Source: an uncultured Planctomycetales bacterium
GTDB lineage: Bacteria; Omnitrophota; Gorgyraeia; Zapsychrales; JAHFFX01
Assembly: GCA_964464475.1 (NCBI GenBank)
Contig: CAYXGG010000005.1
Coordinates: forward strand, 33,143 to 97,142
Direction of reading: 5' to 3'
Length of the DNA: 64,000 bases
The notes beneath the pieces were generated by a model. That model was not told the DNA's origin and did no database searches. It worked only from the letters and a program-made list of their open reading frames with translations. A program made the translations under genes and the position numbers. Shown piece by piece: positions 4,466 through 23,112 of the stretch. Each line of letters starts with the position of its first letter. Position 1 is the stretch's first letter.

Positions 4466-4576
4466 GGCGGACCATCTGTCTTCGCGAAACAAGAAAAGCC
4501 ATTGCAATGTGTTCGGGTTTTCAGTAGAATGGCGCCAGTTGTGTGAGCTAAAAGGCTGTTAGGGCGAAAATATTTC

Positions 4577-4771
4577 ATGGATAACTTAGCGAAAGCCCTT
4601 ACGTTATTATTTATCGCGGCTGGTTTCGCGATTTTTGTTTTAGTGTTACTGTTTAAGTTGGACGTGGTTTCCAAAAAAGCCGAAGCCGAAGTCCAAGAGT
4701 CATCTTCAGAAGCCATTTGGGAAGCGCATCTTTATCACCAGGCCATTGAGGGGGCCATGAAGGCCAAATAG
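4577..4771 (+). CDS. Small single-pass membrane protein (hypothetical)
   Basis: 64-aa ORF with one TM helix, LTLLFIAAGFAIFVLVLLF. No recognisable family. Confidence 0.3.
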   Translation: MDNLAKALTLLFIAAGFAIFVLVLLFKLDVVSKKAEAEVQESSSEAIWEAHLYHQAIEGAMKAK

Positions 4772-4799
4772 AGAGTTATAGTTCAAGAAAGGACGCACT

Positions 4800-5615
4800 A
4801 TGAAAAATACTGTTTCTTTGATTGTAATCGTTGCGGTGGCTATTGCCATCGGCGTGGCGTTGGCGGTTCAGCTAAATCAGGCACCCATGGTGGCCCAACA
4901 GCTGGGTATGATCATTGAATCGCAAGCGAAGATTGATCAAAAAATGACTTCTATTGAAGAGCAGCAGAAAAAAATGTTGGAAATTTTTGAAAGTGCCAAA
5001 AAGTCCGCTGAGCGCTTTGCTCAGCAAGGAGGAGCGGGTGGTCAGCAAGCCCAGCGACAAATGCCACCGCCGGAAGATTTGAATAAAGTTTATGATATTC
5101 CCGTTGGGGCTTCTTATATACGCGGTAACCCCGAAGCAAAAGTTACTATCGTTCAGTTTACGGATATCCAGTGCCCATTCTGTCAAAGATTTTACACACC
5201 CATTTTGGAAGTGCTTAAAGCTTATCCTAATGACGTAAAGTTTATCGTTAAGAATTTTCCATTGAGTTTTCATCCCAGCGCCCGACCGGCTGCGAAAGCC
5301 GCGTTGGCTGCCGGTGAGCAGGGTAAGTATTGGGAAATGATGGATTTGTTGTTAGAGGCGGGTCAGCAGTTGACCGATGAGAATTATAAGACATTGGCTG
5401 GGAAAATAGGGATCAGTGTGGAGCAATTTACCGCTGATTTAAAGAATAATGACGCGAAGTACGAAAAAATCATTAATGATGATTTGCAGCTTGGGTCTTC
5501 GGTGGATGTTCGTGGAACCCCCGCCTTCTATTTGAATGGCAAGAAAACCAACGCACGTGAATTTTCCATGTATAAACAGGAAATTGACGCAATTTTGGGG
5601 AAAGCCGGCCAATAA
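4800..5615 (+). CDS. DsbA-family thiol:disulfide oxidoreductase, membrane-anchored with a thioredoxin fold
   Basis: N-terminal TM/signal anchor. CPFC active-site motif in FTDIQCPFCQRF. cis-Pro region VRGTPAFYLNG. Confidence 0.75.
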   Translation: MKNTVSLIVIVAVAIAIGVALAVQLNQAPMVAQQLGMIIESQAKIDQKMTSIEEQQKKMLEIFESAKKSAERFAQQGGAGGQQAQRQMPPPEDLNKVYDIPVGASYIRGNPEAKVTIVQFTDIQCPFCQRFYTPILEVLKAYPNDVKFIVKNFPLSFHPSARPAAKAALAAGEQGKYWEMMDLLLEAGQQLTDENYKTLAGKIGISVEQFTADLKNNDAKYEKIINDDLQLGSSVDVRGTPAFYLNGKKTNAREFSMYKQEIDAILGKAGQ

Positions 5616-5711
5616 GAGGTGCTGGTAAATTTTAGTTGCATTTTTTCCGTCTCAAGAGTAGCATAAGGCCTTTGTTTCTTAGGGCAAAAGTAGTATTTAA
5701 GGGAGGTTAGC

Positions 5712-5984
5712 ATGACCAAAGTCGGCGGTACAACAAAAAAATATTACAAAGAGACCCGGGGCATGAAAGTCTCTGGCGGCCAGAAAGTCAAAGCAGGTAC
5801 GATGTTGACCCGAGAAGGTCATCGTTGGCAACCGGGCTTGAACGTAATCGGCCGCACGCACCTGACGGCGGGCTGTGACGGGGAAGTTTATTTTACTCGT
5901 AAACGCAGCAATTATCGTCGGGGTATTACCTTGATTAATGTCCGGCCTGAGGGCACGGATACTAAAGTTAAGAAAACCAAGTAA
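5712..5984 (+). CDS. rpmA: 50S ribosomal protein L27
   Basis: The segment AGTMLTREGHRWQPGLNVIGRTHLTAGCDGEVYF aligns with the L27 core ([28 protein letters not shown].F). GGGAGG RBS. No rplU is adjacent. Confidence 0.6.
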   Translation: MTKVGGTTKKYYKETRGMKVSGGQKVKAGTMLTREGHRWQPGLNVIGRTHLTAGCDGEVYFTRKRSNYRRGITLINVRPEGTDTKVKKTK

Positions 5985-5999
5985 GCATCCTACCTTTCC

Positions 6000-7832
6000 A
6001 TGTGCGGTATCATCGGATACGTTGGTCATAAGCAAGCGGTTCCGATTCTCATCGAGGGCCTGAAAAAGCTTGAGTACCGAGGATATGACTCCAGCGGCGT
6101 TGGAGTCATATCTTTAGGTCAGGCCAAGATCGATGTGCGCAAAATGGAAGGCAAAATTCATAATCTGCAGGAATTAATCAAAACTCATTCCTTGCCGGAC
6201 GCCACGATCGGCATTTCGCATACCCGCTGGGCCACTCACGGGGTTCCCAATCGCGTTAATTCCCATCCTCATGGAGACAGCCAAGGAAAGATTTTGGTTG
6301 TGCATAACGGCATTATTGAGAATTATCAAGAACTACGTTCGTATTTGGAGAATAAAGGGGTTAAGTTCCTTTCCCAAACGGACACAGAAGTTGTGCCGCA
6401 TTTGATTGCTGCTTTTTACCAGGGAGATTTCCTGGCTGCCGTCCTGAAAGCGATTCAGCAGCTAAAGGGAGCTTTTGCTTTGGGGATCATTCACCGTGAC
6501 CATCCGGATACATTGATCGCAGCGCGCGTGGGCTCACCGTTAATTATCGGTATTGGAAAGGATGAGAATTTTATCGCGTCGGATGTCCCGGCCATTTTGG
6601 ATAAAACCAAGAAGGTCATTTATCTTAAAGATAATCAGTTGGCCGTCATCTCTCGTAAAGCGGTTAAAGTCTATGCTTTTACGGGGAAGGCTGTGCCGGC
6701 TAAAGTAGACACGGTTTCCTTTACCGTCGGATCGGTTCACAAAGATGGTTATCCGCACTTCATGCTCAAAGAAATTCATGAGCAGCCCAAAGTTTTGAAT
6801 CACATGTTTTCCAACCGGATGAAGGGCAACAATATTCATCTTGAGGGTTTAAATCTTAAAGAAGCGGACATTAAGAAAATTAAGCAAATTATGGTTGTGG
6901 GTTGTGGAACGGCTTACCACGCGGGGATGGTCGGGAAGTATATTATTGAACGCTTGGCGCGCTTGCCGGTTTTGACGGATGTTTCCAGTGAGTTTCGTTA
7001 TCGCGATCCGATTATTGATAAATCTACGTTGATTTTGGCGATTAGTCAAAGCGGGGAGACCGCGGATACCCTGGCGGCGGTCAAAGAGGCCAAAGCGATG
7101 GGTGCCAAAGTCATCTCAATTTGTAATGTGATGGGATCATCGCTAGCGCGGGAATCACACGGCATTCTGTATACGCATGCGGGTCCGGAAATGGGCGTGG
7201 CTTCTACGAAAGCTTATACCGCTCAGTTGGCGATGTTATATTTACTGGCCATCAAATTAGCGGCGATGCGTAAGGTTTTTTCGCGAGGACATTTGCAGAA
7301 GATTATTAAGGATCTCAAACATATCCCGGCTTTGTATCAGCAAATTTTACATCATACGCACACCATTTCTAAGATTGGCCATGATAACGCGCATTTTGGG
7401 TGCTTCTTATTTTTGGGGCGGAATATTAATTATCCTTCTGCTCTCGAGGGGGCCTTGAAATTAAAAGAGATTTCGTATATTCCCGCAGAGGGTTATGCCG
7501 CTGGAGAAATGAAGCATGGACCAATCGCGCTCATTGATGAGTATCGAGCCGTGGTCTGTATCGCTCCGCAATCGGAAACTTATGAGAAGATGGTTTCCAA
7601 CATGCAAGAAATCAAATCCCGCAAAGGGAATATCATCGCTATTGCTACCGAAGGTGATGCTGAAATCAAGAATCATTCCCACCACGTTATTTATATTCCG
7701 AAGACTAACCCCATATTGACTCCATTGTTGGTGGCGTTGCCTTTACAATTGATCGCGTACGCCATTTCCACTAAACGTGGTTGTGATGTTGATCAACCTC
7801 GTAATTTAGCCAAATCGGTCACGGTTGAATAA
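6000..7832 (+). CDS. glmS: Glutamine--fructose-6-phosphate aminotransferase (isomerizing)
   Basis: MCGIIGYVGH Ntn-amidotransferase N-terminus. Two SIS domains. C-terminal ...GCDVDQPRNLAKSVTVE. 610 aa. Confidence 0.95.
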   Translation: MCGIIGYVGHKQAVPILIEGLKKLEYRGYDSSGVGVISLGQAKIDVRKMEGKIHNLQELIKTHSLPDATIGISHTRWATHGVPNRVNSHPHGDSQGKILVVHNGIIENYQELRSYLENKGVKFLSQTDTEVVPHLIAAFYQGDFLAAVLKAIQQLKGAFALGIIHRDHPDTLIAARVGSPLIIGIGKDENFIASDVPAILDKTKKVIYLKDNQLAVISRKAVKVYAFTGKAVPAKVDTVSFTVGSVHKDGYPHFMLKEIHEQPKVLNHMFSNRMKGNNIHLEGLNLKEADIKKIKQIMVVGCGTAYHAGMVGKYIIERLARLPVLTDVSSEFRYRDPIIDKSTLILAISQSGETADTLAAVKEAKAMGAKVISICNVMGSSLARESHGILYTHAGPEMGVASTKAYTAQLAMLYLLAIKLAAMRKVFSRGHLQKIIKDLKHIPALYQQILHHTHTISKIGHDNAHFGCFLFLGRNINYPSALEGALKLKEISYIPAEGYAAGEMKHGPIALIDEYRAVVCIAPQSETYEKMVSNMQEIKSRKGNIIAIATEGDAEIKNHSHHVIYIPKTNPILTPLLVALPLQLIAYAISTKRGCDVDQPRNLAKSVTVE

Positions 7833-8044: not shown

Positions 8045-8731
8045 ATGCTTTACATTGTCTCCACTCCTATCGGTAATTTAAAAGACATTACGCTTCGCGC
8101 GTTGGAAGTCCTAAAAGACGTCGACCTTATCGCTGCCGAAGATACCCGCCACACTAAAAATCTTCTCAATCATTATTCCATTACGACTCCGCTGACCAGT
8201 TATTTTGAACATAATCAGGTTAAGAAATCCGATTATTTGCTTTCTTTATTACAAGAAGGAAAGAATATTGCGCTGGTGACGGACGCGGGCACTCCCGGCA
8301 TTAGTGACCCGGGTTTTTTGCTGATTCGTTTGGCGAAAGCTAATCAGATCCCGGTGACTGTTGTTCCTGGACCCACGGCGTGTATCGCCGCTTTGTCCCT
8401 CTCTGGCCTGCCTGCGCATGATTTTGTTTTTGAAGGTTTTCTACCGGTGAAATCTGCCGCGCGGCAGAAAAAATTGTTATCTCTTAAAGACGAGTTACGT
8501 ACAATTATTTTTTATGAGTCGCCGCATCGCTTGGTTAAGGCGCTAAAAGACATGGAAGTTGTTTGGGGTAACCCTGCGGTGACGGTCATTCGGGAGTTGA
8601 CCAAAAAGTTTGAAGAGGTTTTAGAAGGTGAAGCAAGTCAGCTTGTGGAATTTTTCTTAAAGAAGCCCCCGAAGGGTGAATTCGTGATTCTGGTTAATTT
8701 TTCTAACGGCAAAAGAGCTCTTCAGGAATAA
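8045..8731 (+). CDS. rsmI: 16S rRNA (cytidine1402-2'-O)-methyltransferase
   Basis: MLYIVSTPIGNLKDITLRALEVLKDVDLIAAEDTRHTKNLL is the tetrapyrrole-methylase-fold RsmI signature. Confidence 0.85.
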   Translation: MLYIVSTPIGNLKDITLRALEVLKDVDLIAAEDTRHTKNLLNHYSITTPLTSYFEHNQVKKSDYLLSLLQEGKNIALVTDAGTPGISDPGFLLIRLAKANQIPVTVVPGPTACIAALSLSGLPAHDFVFEGFLPVKSAARQKKLLSLKDELRTIIFYESPHRLVKALKDMEVVWGNPAVTVIRELTKKFEEVLEGEASQLVEFFLKKPPKGEFVILVNFSNGKRALQE

Positions 8732-8884
8732 TTACTGGCCTTTTCTCATCCAACAATGGTAAGGAAGCCAGCCCGCCTGCCGGACGGACAGGTATTAGAC
8801 CTTTCTTCTCTTAGAGAAAAGGCGGTACCTGCCTCGCCGGTAGGCGAGTTGACTACCTTAAATTCATCATTGGAAGTAGAAAGG

Positions 8885-9832
8885 TCAATAAGTTTTCTTG
8901 TCATTCGAGGGAGCAGTAAAGAGGGCTGCTTCGAGAGAAGCGCTTTTGGCGAGGAATCGACTGGATAGTGATTTTAGAGATAGTCGAATTCGATGTAAGC
9001 GCTGCTCACTGACAAAAAATACGTACCAGGTCAGCATCTGAGTTGAGAAGAAAATCAGTTTCTCCATAAAAAGAACGACTAAGCCCTGAAACGAAATTCC
9101 AAAGAAGATTCCCACCGGCCGCAAATACCGAATGCAGAACAAAATTGGGGCTGCTATTTCAAAAGTTAACGCCAAATATTGCAGTAAACTCCAAACCCCC
9201 AAGGGCAAAATGTCGAGGCATTGGGCGGCCAAATCAGTCATATAAAGGCCCTGCACGTGGCTCCATAAAACGTTGGGATTCTTTAGCCAGTCTCCCCGAA
9301 AAGCTTTCGCGTATCCCGCAAAAAAATAATGAAGAATTAAGGTCATTTGGAAAATTCTGACCGGCCAGATGGCTTGAGGGCGGGGTTCGGTGGAATGGAA
9401 TGACCAATAGGCATCATGTTTGGTAAAGAGCATTAACGTCATGGAGAGAGCAAAGAATTTATTGAGCGTGTAGGCGCTAAAAACATCCACATGATTGATG
9501 TATAAAACGCATGCCCAAAGCAAGGGGCAGGTGATTCGGGTGTAAAGTCCTAATGTCCAGGCTATGAGGCTTCCAAAGAAAAGAAAGCCGAAAAACGGCA
9601 GCCAGTCCGGCGGGAGGGCGGGCCATACTGGAATAGCAAGCAGTGCTTTTCCAGAAATGTGAAAGCTTTGTGTTGTCAGCCACTCCGTACTGTTCTGCCA
9701 CCAGACAATAAAGTAACTGAACATTGCCAAGCCGCTCAGAACTCGGTAGGTACACAATGCTATGGGGTCATGCAGTGCGAAAAAGAATTTGTATAGACGC
9801 CGCGATTGGTGGATAAAGAATTTTAAAATCAT
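8885..9832 (-). CDS. HTTM-domain-like polytopic membrane protein. This is the third HTTM paralogue in the block.
   Basis: N-terminus FFALHDPIALCTYRVLSGLAMFSYFIVWWQN resembles the HTTM start (L/F-DP-x-x-L-x-x-F/Y-R-x-x-x-G-x-x-M). About 8 TM segments. It overlaps the upstream gene by 4 nt. Confidence 0.45.
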   Translation of the reverse strand: MILKFFIHQSRRLYKFFFALHDPIALCTYRVLSGLAMFSYFIVWWQNSTEWLTTQSFHISGKALLAIPVWPALPPDWLPFFGFLFFGSLIAWTLGLYTRITCPLLWACVLYINHVDVFSAYTLNKFFALSMTLMLFTKHDAYWSFHSTEPRPQAIWPVRIFQMTLILHYFFAGYAKAFRGDWLKNPNVLWSHVQGLYMTDLAAQCLDILPLGVWSLLQYLALTFEIAAPILFCIRYLRPVGIFFGISFQGLVVLFMEKLIFFSTQMLTWYVFFVSEQRLHRIRLSLKSLSSRFLAKSASLEAALFTAPSNDKKTY

Positions 9833-10368
9833 GATTTTGGGGGAGTAAGGTAAGAAGAAATATACAAAACGTAGTATTGCTCAGGATTAAATTTTTCTAT
9901 CGGTTCATTTTCCCAATGCTTTTTGAAGCCATTCATTTTAAGATTCCGGTTTATTTGTAAGAATCGGACCGCGATGGGCTGTGGAGCGCGCGGATTCTTT
10001 TGCCGATAATTTTCTTTTAACCAGAGGGCCAGTTCAAAATGGGCGCGTTTATTGCCGCGATTGTTAAAAATCTCAAAATAGCGATTAAGACGATTGCGAT
10101 ATCCGAAAGGCCGCATTTTAAAATCTTCCTGTTGGTTATAGGTTATCCAGGGGCCATCAGGGAGGAATTGAAACTGGATAAAATACTGCGGCCAGGAACC
10201 AACTGAGTTGGTAAAAAGCGCAGAGCAGTTGTAGAGATTATTCAGGATAGGTGGCGAGTGAGGAAAAAATTTCCCGGTTAGTCCCATATAGGAGAAGGGA
10301 ATGACCCAAACAAATAAAAAAAGCGCGCAGCCAAAATAGTCCAGCTTGCTAGGCGAGGGCGTTTTCAT
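9829..10368 (-). CDS. Hypothetical N-terminally anchored protein, co-transcribed with the HTTM-like gene
   Basis: 179-aa ORF with an N-terminal TM helix, FGCALFLFVWVIPFSYMGL. No known motif. Translationally coupled to 8885-9832. Confidence 0.4.
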   Translation of the reverse strand: MKTPSPSKLDYFGCALFLFVWVIPFSYMGLTGKFFPHSPPILNNLYNCSALFTNSVGSWPQYFIQFQFLPDGPWITYNQQEDFKMRPFGYRNRLNRYFEIFNNRGNKRAHFELALWLKENYRQKNPRAPQPIAVRFLQINRNLKMNGFKKHWENEPIEKFNPEQYYVLYISSYLTPPKS

Positions 10369-10482
10369 GGAAAATTGTTAAAGGTCACTACGTGTCATCG
10401 ATTTTTGGTCGATAACCATAACTTTGGATGAGCGTAATCGGCGGTAATGATGGTTATAAAAATAATGAGCGGTGCTTATAAT

Positions 10483-11130
10483 CTATGGTCCGTAGGTAAT
10501 GAAATTCCAAGAGGCCGTTCCGGAGCCATCAGAAGTAAGAACTTTTCCTGAGGCTGGAGCGCCTCCACGAATACTGATTTGTCCATTTACGTCCAGTTTG
10601 GTGGCCGGATTCGTAGAGCCAATACCGACGTTACCGGTAGTAATTATCGTGTCGCCTCTTAATGTCGATGTCCCATTAACATCTAGTTTGGTGGCCGGGT
10701 TCGTAGATCCGATCCCAACGTTACCGGTGACAAGGGCATTGCTGCGAATATTGGCAGAGCCATTCACATCTAATTTGGCTCCAGGAGTAACGGTTCCAAT
10801 CGCCACATTCCAAGCCGTATTGTTAGGGTAAAGGTCGGTCCCGGATTGGGTCCAGGCGGAGGACAAGGTGCTGCCTGTCCAGGAGCTGGTGCTTCCACAA
10901 ACTTCTATCTGATAATTATCATTGCGAACATAAAATGTTCCCGGAGTGCAGGCGCCGGATTTTGCGGCTTGAGGAACCAGCAGCAATTCACTATAAGCGC
11001 CAATAGGGGAAGGATAATATGTCGTAAGCGATAATGTTTCTGCGGAAGCTTTAAAGCAATACCCTAAGGTGAAGACGATAACGCCGATAGTGATAATGTG
11101 GTTGGAAGAATTTCTCCTGAAGTGATCCAT
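10483..11130 (-). CDS. Secreted protein with tail-fibre-like beta-repeats (NVGIGSTNPATKLDVNG, three copies)
   Basis: Signal peptide MDHFRRNSSNHIITIGVIVFTLGYCFKASA from the ATG at 11130. Repeated G-N-V-G-I-G-S-T-N-P-x-x-K-L-D-V-N-G units as seen in phage tail-fibre and collar proteins. The longer ORF, open to 11265, overlaps the upstream gene. Confidence 0.55.
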   Translation of the reverse strand: MDHFRRNSSNHIITIGVIVFTLGYCFKASAETLSLTTYYPSPIGAYSELLLVPQAAKSGACTPGTFYVRNDNYQIEVCGSTSSWTGSTLSSAWTQSGTDLYPNNTAWNVAIGTVTPGAKLDVNGSANIRSNALVTGNVGIGSTNPATKLDVNGTSTLRGDTIITTGNVGIGSTNPATKLDVNGQISIRGGAPASGKVLTSDGSGTASWNFITYGP

Positions 11131-11255
11131 GAAAGGTTCAAAAGTATTTCTTAACATAGATTTAGTATATTTTATTTTTGCTGATAGAGCAACTAACCAG
11201 TTTAAAAATGAGAAATATTTGAAATAAGGCATTGCTTGTTGCTCCCCAAAAGGTT

Positions 11256-13670
11256 TTATAGGCATGGTGGATTGAGGGCTCCATAAGAATTACAGGCGCA
11301 TTCGGGTGGATCTGAGGGCCCTCCGGTGCAACTACCACTATTCCAACTGATGCATCCATAGACACAAGCAGGAAGTGCTTCGTCCACCTCATCGACTTCA
11401 TCAACGGGAGGTGTGACTGTTGGTGGCGTTACGGTCGGCGGCGATACCGTGGGTGGTGTGATCGTTGGCAACCCTTCATCTACCTCATCGACTTCATCAA
11501 CGGGAGGTGTGACTGTTGGTGGCGTTACGGTCGGCGGCGATACCGTGGGTGGTGTGACGGTAGGCGCTCCTTCGTCCACCTCGTCGACCTCATCAACGGG
11601 AGGTGTGACCGTTGGTGGCGTTACGGTCGGCGGCGATACCGTAGGTGGTGTGACGGTAGGCGCTCCTTCGTCCACCTCGTCGACCTCATCAACGGGAGGT
11701 GTGACCGTTGGTGGCGTTACGGTCGGCGGCGATACCGTAGGTGGTGTGACGGTAGGCGCTCCTTCGTCCACCTCATCAACGGCCACGCCGTTACATTCAA
11801 TACAGATTGAACAGACAGGTGTAATGCAGGCCCCGCCCATTTGGCACATAAATCCTCCCGGGTCAATAGAGCAAAAAGGGTTGGGAGAACCGTCACTAAT
11901 GACATTGTTATAAGTTTTGCAGCCTCCTTGAGAACTGCAGTCTAAGGAGGAAGGGCATCCTGTTCCGCAACTCGCGCTAGGTGATGGTGCCGCAACGGTT
12001 GGGGGCGTGACTGTTGGGGGCGTGGCTGTTGGGGGTGTCACGGTCGGTGGTGTTACTGTTGGAGGTGGAGTTACGGTTGGGGGGGTCACTGTGGGAAAGC
12101 AATTACCGCAATCTTCAGGTGCAGTATTGCAATCCTCGCCTCCTCCACAACATCCATCTCCCGGTGTTGAACTCGAGCAATCCGCTGGACAATTACAAAC
12201 ATTTTCGCCAACTTGACAGGTTCCATTAGGACAAGAGGTTCCTGATTGACAGCAATTGGATACAGGATAAAACCAAGTTCCTCCGATACAAATGGCCGAA
12301 CAGGCGGAGGTTCCATTAGAGGTAGTACCACTGGGACAACCGAGTACTTGAGGAAAACACATATCTGCCCCGCACCCAGGCATTTGAGCGGAATCCGCAG
12401 TACAGTCTTGTAGACAGTTTGAACAATCTTCCCCCGCACCACAAGTACCGTCGCCACAGTTTACTCCGCAGGCCGGCATGGGGCAGGCCTGGCTTGAGGG
12501 GCCGGCGCAATCGGTGCCTCCGCAGGCGGGCGTGGGATTGGTGCACGTACGTGTCTGAATACCGTCCTGGCCACATAATCCCGTACAAGTACTCCAAGCG
12601 CTCCAGCCTCCATTAACCGCAGGGGTACAGCAGTCTCCTGGACAGCTGACGGCATTTTCCGAAGCGCAGCAATAACCGTCGCCGCAGTTAGGGCAGCCAC
12701 TCACGCAAGTAACACTAGGATTGAAAGGATTGGGCGGAGAACAGGTTCCAGAGCATCCAAATAAAGCGCAAGAGACACAGGAACAGGTCGAATAATCCAA
12801 AAATGATCCATTCGGACAAGAATTTGTACAATAACAGGATGGACCAAAAGGCGTATCATTACACCCGGTTTGGGGTGCCGGACACGTATGTAAGGTGCAG
12901 GTTGTTGAGGGACAAAGAGTTGGCGGACAGTTTGCGAGATTACAAACAGTTATGTTGTTGCCCGGGCAATCGGTCGGCGCATTAGTGCAGTTTTCGCATG
13001 GAGTGTCACAAAAACCATCACCAACATTTAGTGAGCAAGAGCAATCTGCTGGGCAGGTGGCTACTGTTTCCCCCTGAGCGGTATCGCAGAACCCATCGTT
13101 ACATTGGGTCCCACAGTCTTGCGGGCACGTCGCTGAACTTTCAGTCGCTGAACAAAAACCATCACCGCAAGGACTACTACAATCTCCGGGGCAGGAAGCT
13201 GCTGTTTCGCTTCCGTTGCAAACACCATCACCACAGCACATGGCATTTTCCAGATTGACTCTAAGTTCGTTGAGATGGATCGCTTTTACGCGCGTGGAAC
13301 TGGCAGTGATGTTGCTGTCGGTATAGCTGGGATTAGGTCGACCCAGAGGAGCATAAAAATTGTTAATTGCCGTGCGAAGTTCGTCGATATGAATTTTGCG
13401 GATTTGGGTAACGCCGGCAGTGATGGTTTCAGACCAGGGATAAGCGCTTCCTCCGCACGCCGTTCTTTTGGCATCAATTTGAGCCCGAAGCTCAACGATG
13501 TGTGAGGCCCGAATGCTGGTTGACGTGGTAATATTCTCGCTCCAGGATATGGTGTAGCTGGCGGACTGAGCGTATGAATTTTGATTTAACGACAAAAAGA
13601 AGAAAAGGGTGATGGAAAAGAATAGCGTGGTTAAGTTTTTAAGAATCGGCAGCTGTCGGCAATAATCCAT
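11256..13670 (-). CDS. Giant secreted Cys-rich modular protein. It contains a thrombospondin type-1 repeat, GDGxC...CPxDC cysteine repeats, Pro/Thr linkers and C-terminal Asp/Glu-rich tandem repeats.
   Basis: 804 aa. Signal peptide MDYCRQLPILKNLTTLFFSITLFFFLSLNQNSYAQS. WSAWSTCTGLCGQDGIQTRTCT is a TSP1 consensus. More than 100 cysteines. Four copies of VDEVDEVDEG-APTVTPPTVSPPTVTPPTVTPP at the C-terminus. Confidence 0.75.
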   Translation of the reverse strand: MDYCRQLPILKNLTTLFFSITLFFFLSLNQNSYAQSASYTISWSENITTSTSIRASHIVELRAQIDAKRTACGGSAYPWSETITAGVTQIRKIHIDELRTAINNFYAPLGRPNPSYTDSNITASSTRVKAIHLNELRVNLENAMCCGDGVCNGSETAASCPGDCSSPCGDGFCSATESSATCPQDCGTQCNDGFCDTAQGETVATCPADCSCSLNVGDGFCDTPCENCTNAPTDCPGNNITVCNLANCPPTLCPSTTCTLHTCPAPQTGCNDTPFGPSCYCTNSCPNGSFLDYSTCSCVSCALFGCSGTCSPPNPFNPSVTCVSGCPNCGDGYCCASENAVSCPGDCCTPAVNGGWSAWSTCTGLCGQDGIQTRTCTNPTPACGGTDCAGPSSQACPMPACGVNCGDGTCGAGEDCSNCLQDCTADSAQMPGCGADMCFPQVLGCPSGTTSNGTSACSAICIGGTWFYPVSNCCQSGTSCPNGTCQVGENVCNCPADCSSSTPGDGCCGGGEDCNTAPEDCGNCFPTVTPPTVTPPPTVTPPTVTPPTATPPTVTPPTVAAPSPSASCGTGCPSSLDCSSQGGCKTYNNVISDGSPNPFCSIDPGGFMCQMGGACITPVCSICIECNGVAVDEVDEGAPTVTPPTVSPPTVTPPTVTPPVDEVDEVDEGAPTVTPPTVSPPTVTPPTVTPPVDEVDEVDEGAPTVTPPTVSPPTVTPPTVTPPVDEVDEVDEGLPTITPPTVSPPTVTPPTVTPPVDEVDEVDEALPACVYGCISWNSGSCTGGPSDPPECACNSYGALNPPCL
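11380..11790. repeat. 96-bp tandem repeat array of about 4.3 copies inside the giant Cys-rich gene
   Basis: The string 'cctcatcgacttcatcaacgggaggtgtgac...' recurs at 11387, 11483, 11579 and about 11675, with a 96-bp period. It encodes the VDEVDEVDEG...TPP protein repeats. Confidence 0.85.
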
Positions 13671-13819: not shown

Positions 13820-16762
13820 TCATTGATGAAAATCAATAGTGGAGAAAATTTGAATACGGGTTTGCGCGTCCTTCCAGCAATCGTTGGGCAGCTTAGCTTT
13901 TTCGCTACACAACCGAGATAGAAAAGTTTCTTTATCCGGGATTTTAGACCAAACACTCGGTAAAAATATTCCTCGGTTTTTTCCTTTGCTGACAATAACG
14001 CCATGCCGGCGCGGTTGAATGATGGCCACATCAGAAATAACGCGAGGCGGGGTCAGAACGGAAATCTTGATTTTGCTTTTTTGAAATTCTTCTTTGGTTA
14101 AAGGAGGAAAGCGAGGGTCTTGGAAGGCGGATTCCCGGGCCATGACGGTTATTTCTTGCCAGAGGCTGCGGGTGGGGGTGGTGCTCCCTCGGCATCCGCG
14201 CAGACGACCTTCTAATTCAATCGTGACAAAAGCGCTGGCCGGCAGGTTTAAATAAGCGCTATGAGACAATGCGGCTGGGTCCAGCGGTTGATTGTCGAAT
14301 TGTTCGGTAATGGATTGGGCGGCTTGCTTAAGGAGCATTTGTTGTAATTCCGGATCATGCAGATAGCTTACGGGTTCGGGGCTCGGCGCGTCCTCTTTGA
14401 GGAAAGCGAGGGCCGCGTAGCCAACAACGCGGTTAATGTCTCCGGATGGGGCGTCTCCGGAGTTCGCGTAAGCCAGCGGGGTGACGTTAGTCGCTCCCAG
14501 TAGTTTGGCCGCGATAATTCCTGTTTGGACCGCGCCTTGGCCGCAAAGCGGGGTTTTAAGTTTATTCGCAAATTGTTTTTTTAAGAACGTGACGGTTTGA
14601 TTGACCAGACCTGCATCCATTTGTTGAATGGCGGATAGGGTGATGGGATCAATGCGCAATGCGGAGGCTTGATCCGGATAGTGAGCTAGGTCTGTTGAGA
14701 TAATAATGAGCGCGTTGTGCTTCTTGGCGACTTGGGCGATGGATTCCGCCATGAGCCGGCAAGTTTTAACATCGTCGGTACTGATCAGTAGTGGAACAAT
14801 TTTGAAATTGCTGAAACGGCGTTGCAGAAAAGGGAGTTGGGCTTCTAGCGAATGTTCTTGTTGGTGAGGCAGTGCTGAATCAACGAAAAGGGGGTTGCTG
14901 GTCAACAGTTCCTGGACGACGTCTTCGTTAACTGGGACTTTTCCTAAAGGGGTTTCAAAAAAACCCTTGGCCCAAAGCGCGCCGCCTTTAACGGGTACGC
15001 GATGAGCGGGTCCAATGAGGATAAAGGTGAGCGTGTCATTGTTCAGTTGGTGATAGCCATTGGCTGCTACTCCTCCTGAATATTGGTAAGCCGCGTGGGG
15101 AACCAGCAGCGCGACGATACTTCCGGGGAGCGTTTTTGAGGTCGACGCGTTGAGCAGTTGATCGACGGTGGAAGAAAGCGTTGCGGGGTCTCCGGGATAA
15201 AATTTATCAGCCACGGCGGCCGCTCGGATCCCGCCGCTGGGCACGATGGCTTTTGAGCTTGCAGAAGAATTGGGCTGAGAGGTTTTTTGTTTATGAGTCT
15301 TAGTGTTCTTGACGCAGGAATGTTTTAGCATTACGCGCTTGGTGTATTCCGCGACTTGTCCAGGCGGGGGGGTTTTCTTGGCCATAAAAATTAATTCCAG
15401 CGATTGCAGTCGCTGAGGTCCGGAATGGGTCGCATTCCAAGTGCGGCACAAATACTCTCCGTAATAGGGCCAGTAGTTTTTGTTTTTTCCGTAAGTATGG
15501 TTAAACAGGTAACGTCGCCAACGTTCGCTGGGGAACATCTGAGATGCGGATGGCTTAGTCCAGTCTAATTTCTTTCCGTCGCGGAATAAATCAACGGTGT
15601 TTCCATCGGCCAATTTGCCGGGAACCAGGAACCAGCCATTCGTCATGGCTGGCGGCGCGAACATGCGCCACGCCTGATTGATGTGTAAAAGATCGCAAAT
15701 GTTTTTTAATGGAGCCGGCATGCGATAGGTTTTTTGGGTAATTCGTTCGTAATTATAAAGCAGTACGCAGACCAGTGTCAGCGCCGCGGTCAAATTGGCC
15801 GCGGGGGAAGCGTGAATAGTCATGAACTTTCTGGGTAGACGTTCATAAATATGGCTGCCGGTTATGGCTGTGGTCACACGATCCCAGAGTTTAAGGCCCC
15901 CTATTTTGTCCCAGAATTCTTTGGGTAGAAAGAGAAGCAGGGCGGTGCTGCTAACCCAGGGAAACAACATTAAATGCAGGCAAAGATAAAAGCCCAAGTG
16001 CATCAATAGGAATCCAGCCACCAAAGGCGTCCGAATGTAGGCAGTTGCCCAGGGTAAAAAGAGAAGAATCGGCGCGATTAATTCAAACCAAAGCGTGGCG
16101 TGAGTGATAAAAGACAGCAAGTCAGGAAATTGTAAAAGCGTTAGCGCGAAATTTTTGGCGTAATTATCAATATTAAGTGCGTAATAAACCGCCGTGCCGT
16201 CTTGCCACATGGGCAGAGGCCACTTGTGAAGGGCGGCCATGAAATAGCCAACGGCGTTTTGAATCAACATGGCCGCCGTTCCGACGCTGAATATTTGTAT
16301 CGGAATTTCGTTTTTGTTTAAAGCGCGACTGCTATCAACAGAGAATTTGGCGCCCAACGGCAAAAATAGGCTCCAAAAAAGTAAGAGACGAAAATAATCG
16401 TCTCCGCCGCCCATAATCATCGGATTGCGACGGTGTAATGAAATCAGCAAGAGGTAGGAGAAGAAGGTCATCCAGCGAGTTTGGTACCCAAACATCAAAC
16501 CTAGCGCGCACAGTGCCTGCAAGCCCAGCAGTACGTATTGAACTTGCGGTGTTCCGTTCAACAGGTGAATTGATAGGGCCCAGGGACTGGGAGGTTGTTG
16601 AATGACAGCCATGCGGGGTAAGAGTCCTTCATCAGAGAAGTAAAGCGATACGTCCGGTAGATAATTAATCACATCGATTAAAATAATGAGTCCGATGCCG
16701 ATTCTAAAAATAGCTAGCGCGCGCGTATCAATGCCGAATAAATTTCTGAGTTTATTCATCAA
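13820..16762 (-). CDS. Tri-domain fusion. An N-terminal HTTM domain (vitamin-K-dependent gamma-carboxylase-like, with a VKGC-like C-terminal soluble region) is followed by a Memo-like domain (AmmeMemoRadiSam system protein B) and an AMMECR1 domain (AmmeMemoRadiSam system protein A).
   Basis: HTTM: FRIGIGLIILIDVINYLPDVSLYFSD...HRRNPMIMGGGDDYFRLLLFW. Memo: ALLVPHAAYQYSGGVAANGY, FILIGPAHR, QEHSLEAQLPFL, IISTDLAHYP, LCGQGAVQ, VVGYAALAF. AMMECR1: EGRLRGCRGS...QDPRFPPLTKEEF...HGVIVSKGKNRGIFLPSVW. 980 aa. Confidence 0.8.
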   Translation of the reverse strand: MMNKLRNLFGIDTRALAIFRIGIGLIILIDVINYLPDVSLYFSDEGLLPRMAVIQQPPSPWALSIHLLNGTPQVQYVLLGLQALCALGLMFGYQTRWMTFFSYLLLISLHRRNPMIMGGGDDYFRLLLFWSLFLPLGAKFSVDSSRALNKNEIPIQIFSVGTAAMLIQNAVGYFMAALHKWPLPMWQDGTAVYYALNIDNYAKNFALTLLQFPDLLSFITHATLWFELIAPILLFLPWATAYIRTPLVAGFLLMHLGFYLCLHLMLFPWVSSTALLLFLPKEFWDKIGGLKLWDRVTTAITGSHIYERLPRKFMTIHASPAANLTAALTLVCVLLYNYERITQKTYRMPAPLKNICDLLHINQAWRMFAPPAMTNGWFLVPGKLADGNTVDLFRDGKKLDWTKPSASQMFPSERWRRYLFNHTYGKNKNYWPYYGEYLCRTWNATHSGPQRLQSLELIFMAKKTPPPGQVAEYTKRVMLKHSCVKNTKTHKQKTSQPNSSASSKAIVPSGGIRAAAVADKFYPGDPATLSSTVDQLLNASTSKTLPGSIVALLVPHAAYQYSGGVAANGYHQLNNDTLTFILIGPAHRVPVKGGALWAKGFFETPLGKVPVNEDVVQELLTSNPLFVDSALPHQQEHSLEAQLPFLQRRFSNFKIVPLLISTDDVKTCRLMAESIAQVAKKHNALIIISTDLAHYPDQASALRIDPITLSAIQQMDAGLVNQTVTFLKKQFANKLKTPLCGQGAVQTGIIAAKLLGATNVTPLAYANSGDAPSGDINRVVGYAALAFLKEDAPSPEPVSYLHDPELQQMLLKQAAQSITEQFDNQPLDPAALSHSAYLNLPASAFVTIELEGRLRGCRGSTTPTRSLWQEITVMARESAFQDPRFPPLTKEEFQKSKIKISVLTPPRVISDVAIIQPRRHGVIVSKGKNRGIFLPSVWSKIPDKETFLSRLCSEKAKLPNDCWKDAQTRIQIFSTIDFHQ

Positions 16763-16766
16763 GGGT

Positions 16767-18257
16767 TTAATTCCTTTTATTTTTTTTGGTGCTGGTCGAT
16801 TCTGTGCACGATTGACTCCATAAGATTTTCTTTTGAGTGGAAGAGTCTTGTCCCGGCAGACGCGTCACTCTTTTGATGGTGACAATCTGCAGTGAAGCGA
16901 TTTGTTCGGGCGACGTATGCTTAGAATTCCAACTGCGGCATAAATAGCTCGCATAATGTTTCCACGCGCGTTCTTCATCTCGAATAAGAAAATTCATTTG
17001 AAATTTACGCCAACGTTCATTCTTGAACAGCTTGGCGGCCTCGGGTTTTTCCCAAATAAGCGAAGTGCCAGGTCGGGATGCGTCGACTTGAGTGCCGTTG
17101 TTGAGCGTGGCGGGCACCACCACCCAGCCGCTGATTTTGGAAGGATTAGGAGCAAACATTTTCCAGGCTTGGTCCAAATATAAGAATGTGCTGGCCGTGT
17201 TTAGGGCGGGGGAAAATTTTATTGTTTCTGGAACCAGTCGGGATAGGGTTAAGCCAAAGACAGCGATTAAACAGAGTGCCGCCGTCCCGTTTAGCAACGG
17301 ACTTAACTGGTATTTTGCTGAGTCGGAATTCAAGGCGGTGGGAGATTGGGATAATGCGGAGAACATCGGCAGTATTTTCTGGACTAAATGTGTTTCCCAA
17401 AACCAGGTCGGTAAAAAAAGCGTCATCGCGACAATGCTGATGGCGGGAAAAAGTTCCAAATAGAGGAGAGAATGAAAGCTCATTTGTAACACAATAAAGA
17501 TGAGGGCGGTGAACGTCCGAATTTTTTCATGCCACCAAGGGAGAAAAAGAAGAAAAGGTCCCCACAGTTCAAAATAAAGGATTGCGCGCGTCAGAACTGA
17601 CATGAGGTCGGGGTAATGTAGCAGCCATTCCGCTTGTGGGCGCGCGTAAAGCTCGACGTTGAACGCATAGTATAGGGCGCTTCCGTCATGCCAGGTTTCG
17701 CCCTTCCATTTATGGAGCGCTGTAAAAATATAAACGATAGCAGTTTGTAGCAGCGCGGCGGTTGTCGCCCAGTTAAAAATGCGGGAGGGCCGCTCTATGT
17801 TGTATTTGGACCGTAAGTTATCGAGAGAGAGCCGAATTCCCAACGGTAAAAAAAGACTCCAGAAAAGCATCATCCTTAAATAGTTATCCGCTCCTCCCAG
17901 AATGAGTGGGTTACGTCGCTGGAGAGAGGCTAATAGGATCCAGGATAAGAACGTCATCAGGCCGGTGCGATATCCGACCAGGAGCCCGATGGCGCACAAA
18001 GCTTGCAATAAAAATAGAATGCTTTGGACTTCCACTGTTCCGTTTAGCAGATGCCAGGACATGATTCCCGTGGAAGAGTTTCGCTCCAGAAGGGCTGCAC
18101 GTGGGAGCACTCCGTTATCGGTGTAAAACGCGGTAATGTCTCCGGCGCGAATGGCAAGGTCCCACAAAAGTACGATCGCTAGGCCACATCGAAATAGCAC
18201 TAAAGATCGAACATCAATACCGAATACCCTAGCGAAAAGAGAGGGCTTGTTTTCCAT
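16767..18257 (-). CDS. HTTM-domain protein (vitamin-K-dependent gamma-carboxylase-like). Paralogue of the N-terminal half of 13820-16762.
   Basis: FRCGLAIVLLWDLAIRAGDITAFYTDNGVLP...QRRNPLILGGADNYLRMMLFWSLFLPLG. The C-terminal region shares QAWKMFAP...GW.VVP...ERWRKF...YLCRSWN with the neighbouring gene. The genes are 4 nt apart, consistent with an operon. Confidence 0.8.
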   Translation of the reverse strand: MENKPSLFARVFGIDVRSLVLFRCGLAIVLLWDLAIRAGDITAFYTDNGVLPRAALLERNSSTGIMSWHLLNGTVEVQSILFLLQALCAIGLLVGYRTGLMTFLSWILLASLQRRNPLILGGADNYLRMMLFWSLFLPLGIRLSLDNLRSKYNIERPSRIFNWATTAALLQTAIVYIFTALHKWKGETWHDGSALYYAFNVELYARPQAEWLLHYPDLMSVLTRAILYFELWGPFLLFLPWWHEKIRTFTALIFIVLQMSFHSLLYLELFPAISIVAMTLFLPTWFWETHLVQKILPMFSALSQSPTALNSDSAKYQLSPLLNGTAALCLIAVFGLTLSRLVPETIKFSPALNTASTFLYLDQAWKMFAPNPSKISGWVVVPATLNNGTQVDASRPGTSLIWEKPEAAKLFKNERWRKFQMNFLIRDEERAWKHYASYLCRSWNSKHTSPEQIASLQIVTIKRVTRLPGQDSSTQKKILWSQSCTESTSTKKNKRN

Positions 18258-18433
18258 TCAATTATGGATTTGGTTAGTTTTTGGTCGACCCGTTGTTTAA
18301 GTTAGTGGCAACGGTAATTGATGCAACTATGAACATTATTGTTTAATAAATTTTAGTATAATTGCCCAGGGGAGGCGAGGTAATTGTCAAATTATTTGCT
18401 ATATGAAAGAGATTTATGTCAAAAAAGTGTGCC

Positions 18434-18462
18434 TTGACAAAAGCTTAAAGGCATTTTATAGT
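18434..18462 (+). promoter_or_regulatory. Sigma70-like promoter for the pyrR-pyrB-pyrC operon
   Basis: TTGACA at 18434-18439, 17-bp spacer, TATAGT at 18457-18462. Confidence 0.5.
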
Positions 18463-18481
18463 TGACGCAGTTAACCTTTAA

Positions 18482-19139
<658 letters not shown>

Positions 19140-19156
19140 CTGATTGAGGATGACCC

Positions 19157-20107
19157 ATGGAATGGAACCGAACCGATTTAATTGACCTTAAGGATCTTAG
19201 CCGAGAAGAAATCGAACTCGTTTTAGAGACCGCTAAATCATTTAAAGAGGTTTCTACCCGCGATGTTAAGAAAGTCCCGGCGCTGCGAGGTAAAACGGTC
19301 GTGCTGTTATTTTTTGAAGCGTCGACCCGTACCCGTGTTTCTTTTGAGTTAGCCGCGAAGCGTCTGTCTGCGGATACTATCAGCGTGACGGCCAGCGGCA
19401 GTTCCGCTTCGAAGGGTGAATCAATATTAGATACCGCAAAAAATATTGAAGCTATGCATGTGGATGCGATTGTGGTCCGGCATGGATCAAGTGGCGCGCC
19501 GCAAATTATGGCCGACGCTCTGGGGCCTTCGATTATAAACGCGGGGGACGGGTGTTGTGGTCATCCGACTCAGGCGCTGTTGGATCTGTTTACCATTAAA
19601 GAGCGATTGGGCCGTGTGGCTGGTTTAAAGATTGGGATTGTGGGCGACATTCTGCATTCTCGTGTGGCTCGGTCTAATATTTGGGGCATGACTAAGCTCG
19701 GCGCGGAAGTGACGGTGTGTGGTCCGGCGACCTTAATGCCTCGTGGTATTGAGCAGGCGGGGGTTAAAGTATCCTATGATCTCGTGGATACGATTAAACA
19801 ATGCGATGTTATTATGGCTTTACGGTTGCAGAAGGAGCGCCAGCAAGATAAATTACTTCCTTCCTTGCGCGAATACGCGAAAATGTTTGGGATCAATCAA
19901 GATAAATTAAAACATGCGAAGAAAGATATTCTGGTCATGCATCCCGGGCCCACCAACCGTGGCGTGGAAGTATCGGCAGAAGTCGCTGATGGGGACAAAT
20001 CTTTGATTCTGGAACAGGTGACCAACGGCGTTGCGGTTCGCATGGCCGTATTGTATTTGTTGCTGGGCGCAAAACCAAAACTTGTGGAAGAAGGATCGTC
20101 GATATGA
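19157..20107 (+). CDS. pyrB: Aspartate carbamoyltransferase catalytic subunit
   Basis: STRTR motif in FEASTRTRVSFE. HPTQALLD. 316 aa. Confidence 0.9.
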   Translation: MEWNRTDLIDLKDLSREEIELVLETAKSFKEVSTRDVKKVPALRGKTVVLLFFEASTRTRVSFELAAKRLSADTISVTASGSSASKGESILDTAKNIEAMHVDAIVVRHGSSGAPQIMADALGPSIINAGDGCCGHPTQALLDLFTIKERLGRVAGLKIGIVGDILHSRVARSNIWGMTKLGAEVTVCGPATLMPRGIEQAGVKVSYDLVDTIKQCDVIMALRLQKERQQDKLLPSLREYAKMFGINQDKLKHAKKDILVMHPGPTNRGVEVSAEVADGDKSLILEQVTNGVAVRMAVLYLLLGAKPKLVEEGSSI

Positions 20108-21387: not shown

Positions 21388-21449
21388 TTAGGCAAGAATC
21401 AGAAATCAGGTCCCAGAGCACCTCTGGGAAGCTTGTCTTTGAGGGCTGG

Positions 21450-22712: not shown

Positions 22713-22924
22713 AGAATTTAAGTTTTGTCCCTGTGGCCCGGCTGCCCGTCTCACCGATGGCGAGCCGAGGCGGACCGTTAAGTAGGCTCAACGGCTCCGA
22801 TGTTTGCATGTTAATTTAAAGGTAGTCGGAGTCCCGACTACCACAATATTTTTAGAAGACGTCGGGCATAGAGCGCGGGAACTTTACTCTAAGCAGATGT
22901 TCTCAGAGGCCTACTAAAAATTAT

Positions 22925-23010
22925 GCCCCCGTAGCCTGCCTGACGGAAGTCAGGCTCAACAGATAGAGCACGTGAGCCTTTCTCTAGGCATGGTGCTCTT
23001 AGAGGTTTCT
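22925..23010 (+). pseudogene. Degenerate tRNA-like sequence (pseudo-tRNA-Arg) with a 20-nt hairpin inserted in the D-arm region
   Basis: GCCCCCGTAGC-[ctgcctgacggaagtcaggc]-TCAACAGATAGAGCAC parallels the 5' half of the adjacent tRNA-Arg (GTCCCCGTAGCTCAACGGATAGAGTAC). The 3' half cannot form an anticodon or T arm. Confidence 0.5.
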
Positions 23011-23040
23011 TGAAATAAATTTTTTTGAAAATACATTTAA

Positions 23041-23112
23041 GTCCCCGTAGCTCAACGGATAGAGTACCAGCCTCCGGAGCTGGTGGTACAGGTTCGATTC
23101 CTGTCGGGGACG
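23041..23112 (+). tRNA. tRNA-Arg (anticodon CCG)
   Basis: Acceptor GTCCCCG/CGGGGAC. Anticodon stem CCAGC/GCTGG with loop CTCCGGA gives anticodon CCG. T-arm ACAGG-TTCGATT-CCTGT. Discriminator G. Confidence 0.8.

Follow-up and report, generated by a model that had tools for sequence, protein, structure and literature searches.

The 64,000-nucleotide window analysed here (positions 33,143 to 97,142 of contig CAYXGG010000005.1, assembly GCA_964464475.1, from an uncultured Planctomycetales bacterium placed in the Omnitrophota by GTDB) encodes an exported, cysteine-rich protein of 804 amino acids, hereafter Cys804, beside genes for membrane enzymes of the HTTM family, homologues of the human vitamin-K-dependent carboxylase GGCX. 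Judging from the loci compared, it is the C-terminal acidic tract of this protein, a repeat of Val-Asp-Glu triplets or (VDE)n, and not the Cys-rich body or the thrombospondin type-1 (TSP1) repeat, that travels with a pair of HTTM paralogues. The HTTM pair encoded alongside may use the (VDE)n repeats as its substrate, with a carboxylation-type reaction on the periplasmic side of the membrane as the likeliest chemistry, a proposal to which we give a little less than an even chance. We infer the enzyme–substrate relation, and with it the residue modified, the type of modification and the role of the product. The first-pass annotation of this DNA had named the protein as a candidate substrate of the HTTM enzymes; comparative genomics supports a functional tie to them and narrows it to the (VDE)n tract, with the reservation that one HTTM pair, at locus L211, comes without a VDE gene.

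Five loci with GC contents of 46–65% (53–65% in the four outside the window) share an arrangement in which a Cys-rich protein ending in (VDE)n adjoins two HTTM paralogues of different clades. In the window, the acidic repeat region, which is the element proposed here to be modified, occupies aa 631–764 of Cys804 (11379..11780, minus strand). As seen in the translation and with Tandem Repeats Finder (TRF), it consists of five (VDE)2–3 blocks (2+3+3+3+3, or 14 VDE units) separated by Pro/Thr (PT) linkers of 22–23 aa, and the VDE/PT unit forms a 96-bp tandem repeat with 4.2 copies and 95% matches. Four exact coding matches to VDEVDEVDE are found in the window against 0 expected. This array accounts for the VDEVDEVDEG repeats with PT-rich linkers noticed previously. 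The accompanying description of dense Glu clusters is right about the clustering but not about its nature: the clusters are strictly V-D-E triplets, and Glu (31 residues overall) is outnumbered by Asp (47).

The gene pairing is conserved at four further loci, each with two HTTM paralogues beside the VDE gene; loci and library proteins are designated L and P, respectively. At L007, from an Omnitrophota metagenome-assembled genome (MAG; GC 54%), a Cys/Pro-rich open reading frame (ORF) ending in (VDE)8G(VDE)8IDE-stop is followed by a 379-aa protein, an HTTM, a PMT_2-like glycosyltransferase and an HTTM-Memo-AMMECR1 fusion, and synteny with the window extends through glmS and rsmI. L207 (P0125; GC 53%) comprises, in order, a partial Cys-rich ORF with the end ...CGG(VDE)n-stop, a 375-aa protein, an HTTM, and an HTTM-Memo-AMMECR1 fusion 52% identical to that of the window. 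At L005 (P0122, 51% identity to the 496-aa HTTM of the window; GC 65%), also recovered from a second sample as L006, the order is prepilin-like genes, a gene of the YYPSP family, a 533-aa protein with a HIxELR domain and a Cys-rich body, a 374-aa protein, an HTTM, an HTTM-TPR fusion, and PilM/PilO/secretin/PilB genes; the C-terminus of the 533-aa protein reads GVDEVDQVDEVD...(G)n(VDE)8TTDWCGDFWC. The fifth locus, L210 (P0128; GC 64%), has in sequence pilins, a YYPSP gene, a 322-aa HIxELR protein, a split HTTM, a second HTTM and PilM/PilO/secretin genes. Its HIxELR protein contains only 11 Cys and carries a long VDE tail with the end ...VDEVDEVDEVDEVDEADEV-stop. The contig of P0126 matches the VDE loci in gene order. 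Four clades are represented among the HTTMs at the VDE loci, with two from different clades at each locus, and between loci these proteins are 38–66% identical. Synonymous codons are mixed within the VDE runs at all five loci, including the window, which points to selection on the peptide and not to a DNA microsatellite.

The tract was sought in related proteins and around other HTTM genes. No run of three or more ([VILA][DE][DE]) units occurs in any of the 387 related proteins collected, among them about ten with a HIxELR domain and a Cys-rich body, and (VDE)2 or longer is absent from the 120 best matches rich in the GDGxC module of Cys804. Homologues without HTTM neighbours, which the first-pass annotation had regarded as evidence against its idea, do exist: P0043 and P0060, the only two of the best 120 matches to share both the HIxELR domain and the Cys-rich body, have no HTTM within 10 kb. 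Formally they count against that idea; both also lack a VDE tract, so that they sharpen it, the link being to the acidic tract and not to the Cys-rich body or TSP1. A genome scan for HTTM genes yielded at least 587 confirmed relatives. Among the best 80 loci of these, which span more than a dozen phyla, a (VDE)n ORF was absent from all 79 other, more distant HTTM loci (79 other species), and a Cys-rich ORF of any kind was present only at L007, the VDE locus, and at L047.

The first HTTM of the window (496 aa, clade A; 16767..18257, minus strand) has more than 270 homologues, and both PF05090 and the name 'HTTM domain-containing' are common among them; fusion to a DCC thiol-disulfide oxidoreductase domain (PF04134) is also frequent in the family. 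The second (980 aa; 13820..16762, minus strand) is a clade B HTTM fused to Memo and AMMECR1: its N-terminal ~495 aa, which fall within the family just described, share 40% identity with the 496-aa protein in an alignment of ~500 aa, and the two fused domains were recognized with Pfam (Memo, 190 bits; AMMECR1, 147 bits) and NCBIfam. For the HTTM portions of the 496-aa and 980-aa proteins themselves no Pfam match was obtained. The AlphaFold2 (AF2) model of the 496-aa protein, calculated with 22 homologues, is confident (pLDDT 88.6, pTM 0.89). Its only significant PDB matches in a Foldseek search are cryo-electron microscopy structures of human GGCX, aligned over ~490 columns through both the membrane and the lumenal domains (best match 9wf3_A, E 2.4e-8, probability 1.0, 487 columns). 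Sequence searches of the window HTTMs against the PDB found nothing, the similarity to GGCX lying below HMMER detection. The confident model thus predicts the overall GGCX fold, membrane and lumenal domains included, for the 496-aa enzyme.

Residues of GGCX were mapped by aligning the PDB-verified human sequence with the family profile using hhalign. The correspondences in the 496-aa HTTM are K218 to K183, D263 to E230, F299 to F270, W399 to W365, M401 to M367 and R436 to R415, and this set is conserved in both paralogues of every pair. K183 and E230, which correspond to the general-base Lys and its acidic partner (Asp in GGCX, Glu here), are invariant in alignment A1 and in 17/17 paralogues compared. 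F270 is the equivalent of the CO2-pocket Phe, and W365 and M367 are those of the Glu-site loop (393–404). The Glu-carboxylate site residue N159 also has a conserved equivalent, N116. The D263E variant of GGCX remains active (PMC13486548). Giant-virus GGCX-like 'vitamin K epoxidase' domains likewise have the K218 equivalent and Glu at the D263 position, but these 'epoxidase-only' homologues lack residues 374–418, a region required for carboxylation, as well as the lumenal domain, and are fused to a desaturase (PMC13486548); the HTTMs studied here keep both regions, an LDQxWxMFAP motif aligning to LYGYSWDMMVH of GGCX, and have Memo/AMMECR1 or TPR as fusion partners. The HTTM pair plausibly retains the core chemistry of quinol activation. 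By homology with GGCX, whose active site faces the lumen, the HTTM active site would face the periplasm, and Cys804 has an export signal.

On these grounds the HTTM pair would modify the (VDE)n repeats at the outer face of the cytoplasmic membrane. The conserved Lys would deprotonate a reduced quinone, and oxygenation of the latter would generate a strong base able to deprotonate an acidic side chain or a backbone carbon, to which CO2 would be added. The expected products are gamma-carboxy-Glu and/or carboxylated Asp, and the outcome would be an adhesin-like protein with a tail of high charge density able to bind metal or Ca2+. Acidic residues are the targets of the family elsewhere: GGCX acts on Glu in animals (PMC12647623), and the bacterial member MloH carboxylates Asp (Law 2018, as cited in PMC12647623; also PMC12186529 and 10.64898/2026.08.19.745780). 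A more specific version, namely that in some Omnitrophota-like bacteria two paralogous HTTMs, one of them often fused to Memo/AMMECR1, processively carboxylate Asp and/or Glu of (VDE)n tails to give a poly-Gla/carboxy-Asp metal-binding tail, is speculative and in our estimate rather doubtful.

A number of observations weigh against the tract being a carboxylation substrate. Some concern the enzyme. The GGCX residue mapping has an hhalign probability of only 13.5%, being nevertheless collinear and in agreement with the fold match. The position of H160 is mostly Pro (His in L005_B and L210_A) and that of Y395 is Leu or Ile; the assignment of these proteins as VKGC-type (vitamin-K-dependent carboxylase) enzymes is borne out for the fold (496-aa protein) and core residues but not for the Glu binders H160 and Y395. 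GGCX requires a hydrophobic or long aliphatic residue just before the target Glu (PMC12647623). In V-D-E it is Asp that precedes Glu, and the anchoring rule fits Asp, which follows Val, and not Glu. No propeptide-like recognition element was identified in the VDE proteins, although no systematic search for one was made; the only shared flanks noticed around the VDE runs are Gly residues before and after. The proposed reaction needs O2 and a reduced naphthoquinone, so that the patchy occurrence of quinone synthesis in Omnitrophota (PMC10066038) matters.

Other such observations come from gene context. The association is known from five loci only, their independence being judged from GC content and the 38–66% HTTM identity. 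L211 contains a pair made up of an HTTM and a frameshifted HTTM-Memo with no VDE ORF within −10/+7 kb, L213 a single HTTM beside a Cys/Asp-rich secreted protein without VDE, and L212 a single HTTM in a polyketide synthase (PKS)-like cluster. The steadiest neighbour of the HIxELR-domain family is the YYPSP protein and not an HTTM. DNA coding for (VDE)3 is common in metagenomes, with at least 120 stretches in unrelated low-complexity contexts, and none of the 80 stretches examined lies near HTTM, YYPSP or HIxELR genes; the tripeptide repeat alone is therefore not diagnostic.

The last of these findings would also suit the view that the VDE repeats are a neutral slippage expansion associated with HTTM genes by coincidence in a few related genomes, as would the apparently young state of the 96-bp array in the window with its 95% identity. 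We consider this very improbable, because a C-terminal VDE repeat recurs, written in mixed synonymous codons, at five loci of widely different GC content, the HTTMs beside it share just 38–66% identity, and the tract is missing from all of the 387 related proteins. An unlikely, though less remote, explanation is that what unites the genes is a common surface or pilus apparatus. The HTTMs would then have a different target, for example a lipid, glycan or other protein, and the VDE tract would serve as a disordered acidic spacer or an unmodified cation-binding tail. The clusters of L005 and L210 do lie between prepilin-type and PilM/PilO/secretin(/PilB) genes, the fibre-like YYPSP protein accompanies HIxELR proteins with or without HTTM, a PMT_2-type glycosyltransferase is encoded inside the L007 cluster, and the giant-virus enzymes have been proposed to act on lipids (PMC13486548). 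Pilus genes are, however, absent beside the clusters of the window, L007 and L207, the VDE tract co-varies specifically with the presence of HTTM, and the HTTMs retain the 393–404-like loop and the lumenal domain, which handle the peptide in GGCX and set them apart from the virus enzymes.

Alternatively, the HTTMs could be quinone-linked redox enzymes that assist in forming the ~40 disulfides of Cys804-like proteins, with the VDE tract incidental. The 87 Cys of Cys804, the frequent DCC (PF04134) fusions in the HTTM family, the single HTTM of L213 followed by a secreted protein with 47 Cys and no VDE, and a faint GILT/thiol-reductase/DsbA-like neighbour of P0060 would agree with such a role, and VKOR-type quinone enzymes power bacterial disulfide formation (PMC13486548). 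We nevertheless regard it as improbable, because the VDE protein of L210 has just 11 Cys in the presence of HTTMs, the Cys-rich proteins P0043 and P0060 do without an HTTM neighbour, and Cys-rich ORFs are confined to L007 and L047 among the best 80 HTTM loci. In addition, the only conserved Cys residues of the HTTMs are C440 and C484 of the lumenal domain, leaving no conserved Cys pair in the membrane domain, and a separate DsbA-like protein is encoded in the window at 4800–5615.

If the HTTM pair does carboxylate the (VDE)n tracts, bacterial homologues of vitamin-K-dependent carboxylases would, as far as the literature shows, gain their first class of natural protein substrates, and prokaryotes an equivalent of the Gla proteins. 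In the literature we found no description of a bacterial protein substrate of an HTTM/GGCX homologue and no report that mentions HTTM for Omnitrophota. Among bacterial members we found a demonstrated substrate there for MloH alone, and it is a small molecule; the known targets of the family are animal Gla proteins, a PKS–nonribosomal peptide synthetase (NRPS) intermediate (MloH) and, putatively, lipids in giant viruses. The cassette newly described here, two HTTM paralogues with an exported (VDE)n-tailed protein, is recurrent. Because (VDE)n is a short, easily synthesised motif that co-varies with a defined enzyme pair, the substrate hypothesis is testable, and it could reveal the chemistry of the ancestral enzyme on proteins. 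Should the tails be carboxylated, Gla-type calcium- or mineral-binding chemistry would not be restricted to animals, which would also bear on partner attachment by ultra-small, host-dependent bacteria. Finally, the HTTM fusion gives a physical context for the widespread Memo and AMMECR1 domains, for neither of which, to our knowledge, has the function been resolved.

Human GGCX substrates resemble the candidate in being exported, containing disulfides and having acidic clusters open to processive modification. The HTTM system differs from that of human GGCX in the equivalents of H160 and Y395 and in having two paralogues per locus. The candidate differs from known Gla proteins in that it has no Gla-domain signature and no propeptide signature (the latter not systematically sought), and in that its presumed target is a strict C-terminal V-D-E repeat with the hydrophobic anchor before Asp (PMC12647623). 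MloH is the Streptomyces GGCX orthologue of malonomycin biosynthesis and is cited as carboxylating an acidic residue (Asp) of a small PKS-NRPS intermediate, whereas the candidate is a ribosomally made, exported protein of 804 aa with no NRPS/PKS genes nearby; the two are likened by description only. A clade relative in a PKS-like context is present at L212.

SdpB, a component of the Bacillus SdpABC system, follows the same theme: it is an HTTM-type membrane protein encoded next to the exported toxin SdpC and needed for the maturation of the latter. The similarity to the corresponding NCBIfam model (TIGR04033) is weak, with E values of 1e-7 and 3e-5 and scores of 32 and 24 bits vs a cut-off of 178; moreover, no SdpA or SdpC homologue is present, and the lumenal domain lies outside the model. 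Over its C-terminal 470 aa, the 980-aa protein scores above the NCBIfam cut-offs for components B (TIGR04336, 245.6 vs 26) and A (TIGR04335, 162.8 vs 99) of the AmmeMemoRadiSam system. The radical-SAM component (TIGR04337) has no counterpart in the six-gene cluster, and the only radical-SAM protein among ten further window ORFs scanned is KamA-like and encoded 40 kb away (56935–58161). A further difference is that Memo and AMMECR1 are fused behind the lumenal domain of the HTTM; by homology, this arrangement predicts that both lie outside the cytoplasm, which is unexpected for them.

Cys804 is encoded by a single uninterrupted ORF at 11256..13670 on the minus strand, with an ATG start preceded at 5–11 nt by a GGGGGG ribosome-binding site; the plus-strand reading is riddled with stops. 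The ORF proposed previously is therefore upheld, the strand being the minus one. Scans for promoters and terminators did not outperform shuffled sequence. The composition of the protein is extreme (103 Pro, 100 Thr, 87 Cys or 10.8%, 47 Asp, 31 Glu, 10 Arg and 5 Lys), with 78 acidic (D+E) vs 15 basic (K+R) residues. It falls short of the more than 100 cysteines ascribed to it earlier, and at 804 aa it is not a giant protein. The previously noticed signal peptide (aa 1–34; 13569..13670) shows the expected features, judged by eye in the translation: a basic n-region, a hydrophobic core and a predicted cleavage site between SYA and QS.

The mature N-terminus is formed by a domain with three internal repeats, HIxELR x3 (aa 35–146; 13233..13568), recognized by HIVELR at aa 57, HIDELR at aa 94 and HLNELR at aa 132. 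It is followed by the Cys-rich body (aa 146–525; 12096..13235), ~380 aa of GDGxC-x(8–10)-CPxDC-type modules, in agreement with the modules described before: of six GDGxC seeds, four fit the full pattern. These modules match no Pfam model. The body includes a single TSP1 repeat (aa ~357–403; 12462..12602), with WSAWS at aa 356, which reaches 32.1 bits with PF00090 vs a gathering score of 21.6 only when aa 351–407 are scanned alone. The translation has the TSP1 hallmarks (WSAWSTC...QTRTC...C...C...C...C, with WxxW, an Arg layer and about six Cys in ~50 aa), so that the repeat reported at first reading is confirmed. In the Pfam scan of the whole protein, the one match was a sub-threshold low-complexity Extensin_1 and TSP1 went unreported, an effect that we assume to be due to the composition correction of HMMER.

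The body gives way to a first Pro/Thr linker of TVTPP repeats (aa 526–563; 11982..12095), seen in the translation and as TRF arrays of periods 15 and 18 at 11998–12080. A short Cys-rich segment stands between this linker and the VDE blocks, and beyond them the protein ends in a tail of 40 aa with seven Cys (11256..11378, stop codon included). The Cys-tail is not conserved, the other VDE proteins stopping at or just past the VDE run. On the opposite strand, a 166-aa ORF (11413..11913, plus strand) with 'GGVTVGG...SSTSSTSST' repeats mirrors the PT/VDE repeats and is almost certainly no gene. The features of Cys804 are best explained by an exported, heavily disulfide-bonded, modular surface protein that is probably adhesin-like.

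No full-length homologue of Cys804 was found either by a word-indexed search or by an HMMER scan of 1.84 billion representatives, both of which returned module-level matches only. The HMMER scan gave 5301 matches at E ≤ 1e-3, to TSP1, GDGxC modules or the N-terminal domain, and none to the C-terminal part. The top library matches are TSP1-rich proteins, such as P0001, a type-IV-pilin-fronted environmental protein with ~25 TSP1 repeats. At least two copies of the GDGxC...CPxDC module were present in 100 of the 120 best matches, and its carriers bear many unrelated domains (beta-helix, FG-GAP, lamin-tail, discoidin, peptidases); on this distribution it is a promiscuous extracellular building block. 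The HIxELR x3 domain (~100–110 aa), which corresponds to no Pfam family, is similarly mobile and occurs at the N- or C-terminus of unrelated extracellular proteins with LRR, Big or FN3-like parts. Its AF2 model (pLDDT 85.6) has three helices and long loops; no significant match was found in the PDB or BFVD, the weak ones (E ≥ 0.13) being to proteins of phages and a rudivirus type that are themselves uncharacterised. As far as sequence comparison can tell, Cys804 is a mosaic of promiscuous extracellular modules. It shares TSP1 and GDGxC/CPxDC modules with modular Cys-rich adhesins of environmental bacteria, all of them likely extracellular binding proteins, from which it differs by the (VDE)n tract and, with regard to P0043 and P0060, whose surroundings were examined, by its HTTM neighbours.

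The cluster comprises six genes on the same strand, running from 18257 down to 8885 and encoding proteins of 496, 980, 804, 260, 179 and 315 aa. Housekeeping genes lie next to it: glmS together with an rsmI-like gene at one end, pyrR/pyrB/pyrC at the other, all named from their translations. Downstream of Cys804, the 260-aa YYPSP protein (10483..11265, minus strand), identified from homologues beside HIxELR proteins, has a signal peptide, the motif E-x6-Y-x-P-x-P-x-G-x-Y and then GNVGIGSTNPATKLDVNG fibre-like repeats; its true start is likely M37, at about 11157. The 179-aa membrane-anchored ORF (9829..10368, minus strand) overlaps the next gene by 4 nt. Neither it nor the YYPSP protein matches a Pfam or NCBIfam family. 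The last gene (8885..9832, minus strand) encodes a short, divergent HTTM of 315 aa, comprising the membrane domain only (PF05090, 34.1 bits vs a gathering score of 27.7). This protein is ~18% identical to the two long HTTMs and keeps Lys at the K218 position and Glu at the D263 position.

The three VKGC-fold enzymes counted in the cluster at first reading are thus essentially right, with one fused to Memo and AMMECR1 and one split over the 179-aa and 315-aa ORFs. The 179-aa ORF may be a lumenal-type domain detached from the 315-aa HTTM, but its only match to the lumenal region of long HTTMs is weak and non-significant (hhalign E 0.11). Cys804 does lie between HTTM genes, as had been stated, but is not adjacent to the third, the 260-aa and 179-aa ORFs intervening. 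Split HTTM genes occur elsewhere: at L210 the membrane and lumenal domains are consecutive ORFs (4123–5061 and 5058–5636). The split HTTMs of the window and L210 recall the pairing of DUF5819 with HTTM reported in bioRxiv 10.64898/2026.08.19.745780. A membrane-anchored DsbA/thioredoxin-like protein, encoded ~3 kb away from the cluster at 4800–5615 on the plus strand (PF13462, 86 bits; PF01323, 60 bits), could plausibly oxidize the 87 Cys of Cys804.

Several unannotated families accompany these genes. Members of the YYPSP family have a signal peptide followed by the invariant E-x6-Y-x-P-x-P-x-G-x-Y at the mature N-terminus (alignment A4), and most of them carry GxVGIGxxxPxxKLDVxG fibre-like repeats. 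Besides the window gene, members were located in L001 (32–541 and 9368–9973), L002 (2907–3848, 3854–4825 and 5116–5832), L005 (1322–1693) and L210 (2514–3077). At every locus examined, with or without HTTM, the YYPSP protein is immediately beside a HIxELR-domain protein. The HTTM-Memo-AMMECR1 fusion of the window recurs in L207 (3028–5868), L007 (6207–9218) and the P0126 contig (676 aa with AMMECR1). A family of ~375-aa proteins is represented in L005 (3303–4427), L207 (461–1588), L007 (1750–2889), L208 (3–542, partial) and the P0126 contig (394 aa), and, at those of these loci that show the upstream gene, is encoded between the VDE protein and the first HTTM. Among its motifs are HYINAHLHPHGESIELRD and DHDIDAMA, and the His-x-His...Met pattern recalls, by eye, copper monooxygenases. 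No Pfam model matches the family, and the window contains no member (tblastn E 7). The PMT_2-type membrane glycosyltransferase inside the L007 cluster (4429–6210) is protein O-mannosyltransferase-like; the VDE proteins could carry O-glycans on their Pro/Thr linkers. On the L001 contig, which carries P0043, an ORF of 3995 aa (15635–23228, minus strand) runs off the locus end. Giant ORFs have been reported in Omnitrophota, as have type-4a pili and large adhesin-like proteins linked to host attachment (PMC10066038).

Acid-rich ORFs near other HTTM genes were inspected and set aside. Those of the Poribacteria loci L034, L037, L043 and L050 resemble, by eye, RsfS-type (ribosome-silencing factor) proteins with an acidic tail, that of L030 looks spurious, and those of L012 and L065 encode Asp-rich secreted proteins. 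In L008, from a Chlamydiae MAG, a secreted 583-aa protein with C-terminal (QGGH)n repeats (8072–9823) is encoded directly upstream of an HTTM (9908–11392), and is thus one more exported product with a low-complexity repeat at its C-terminus beside such a gene. The secreted protein of L213 (4053–5195), directly downstream of the HTTM P0142 (2508–3932), is 380 aa long and Asp-rich with 47 Cys, and its C-terminus, a hydrophobic helix with RRRAS, resembles a sorting signal. In L212 (2773–6683), the close HTTM homologue P0138 stands beside FabD-like, thioesterase, PP-binding (acyl-carrier-type) and enoyl-CoA-hydratase genes, a setting of the natural-product type reminiscent of the MloH context. Elsewhere in the window, a large ORF at 24021–25676 combines what looks like a membrane region at the N-terminus with TPR repeats at the C-terminus. 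Three further large ORFs (542–561 aa) lie at 32101–33729 (minus strand), 33861–35546 and 35539–37221 (both plus strand); the first two have no Pfam match, and the translations of the last two have similar N-termini.

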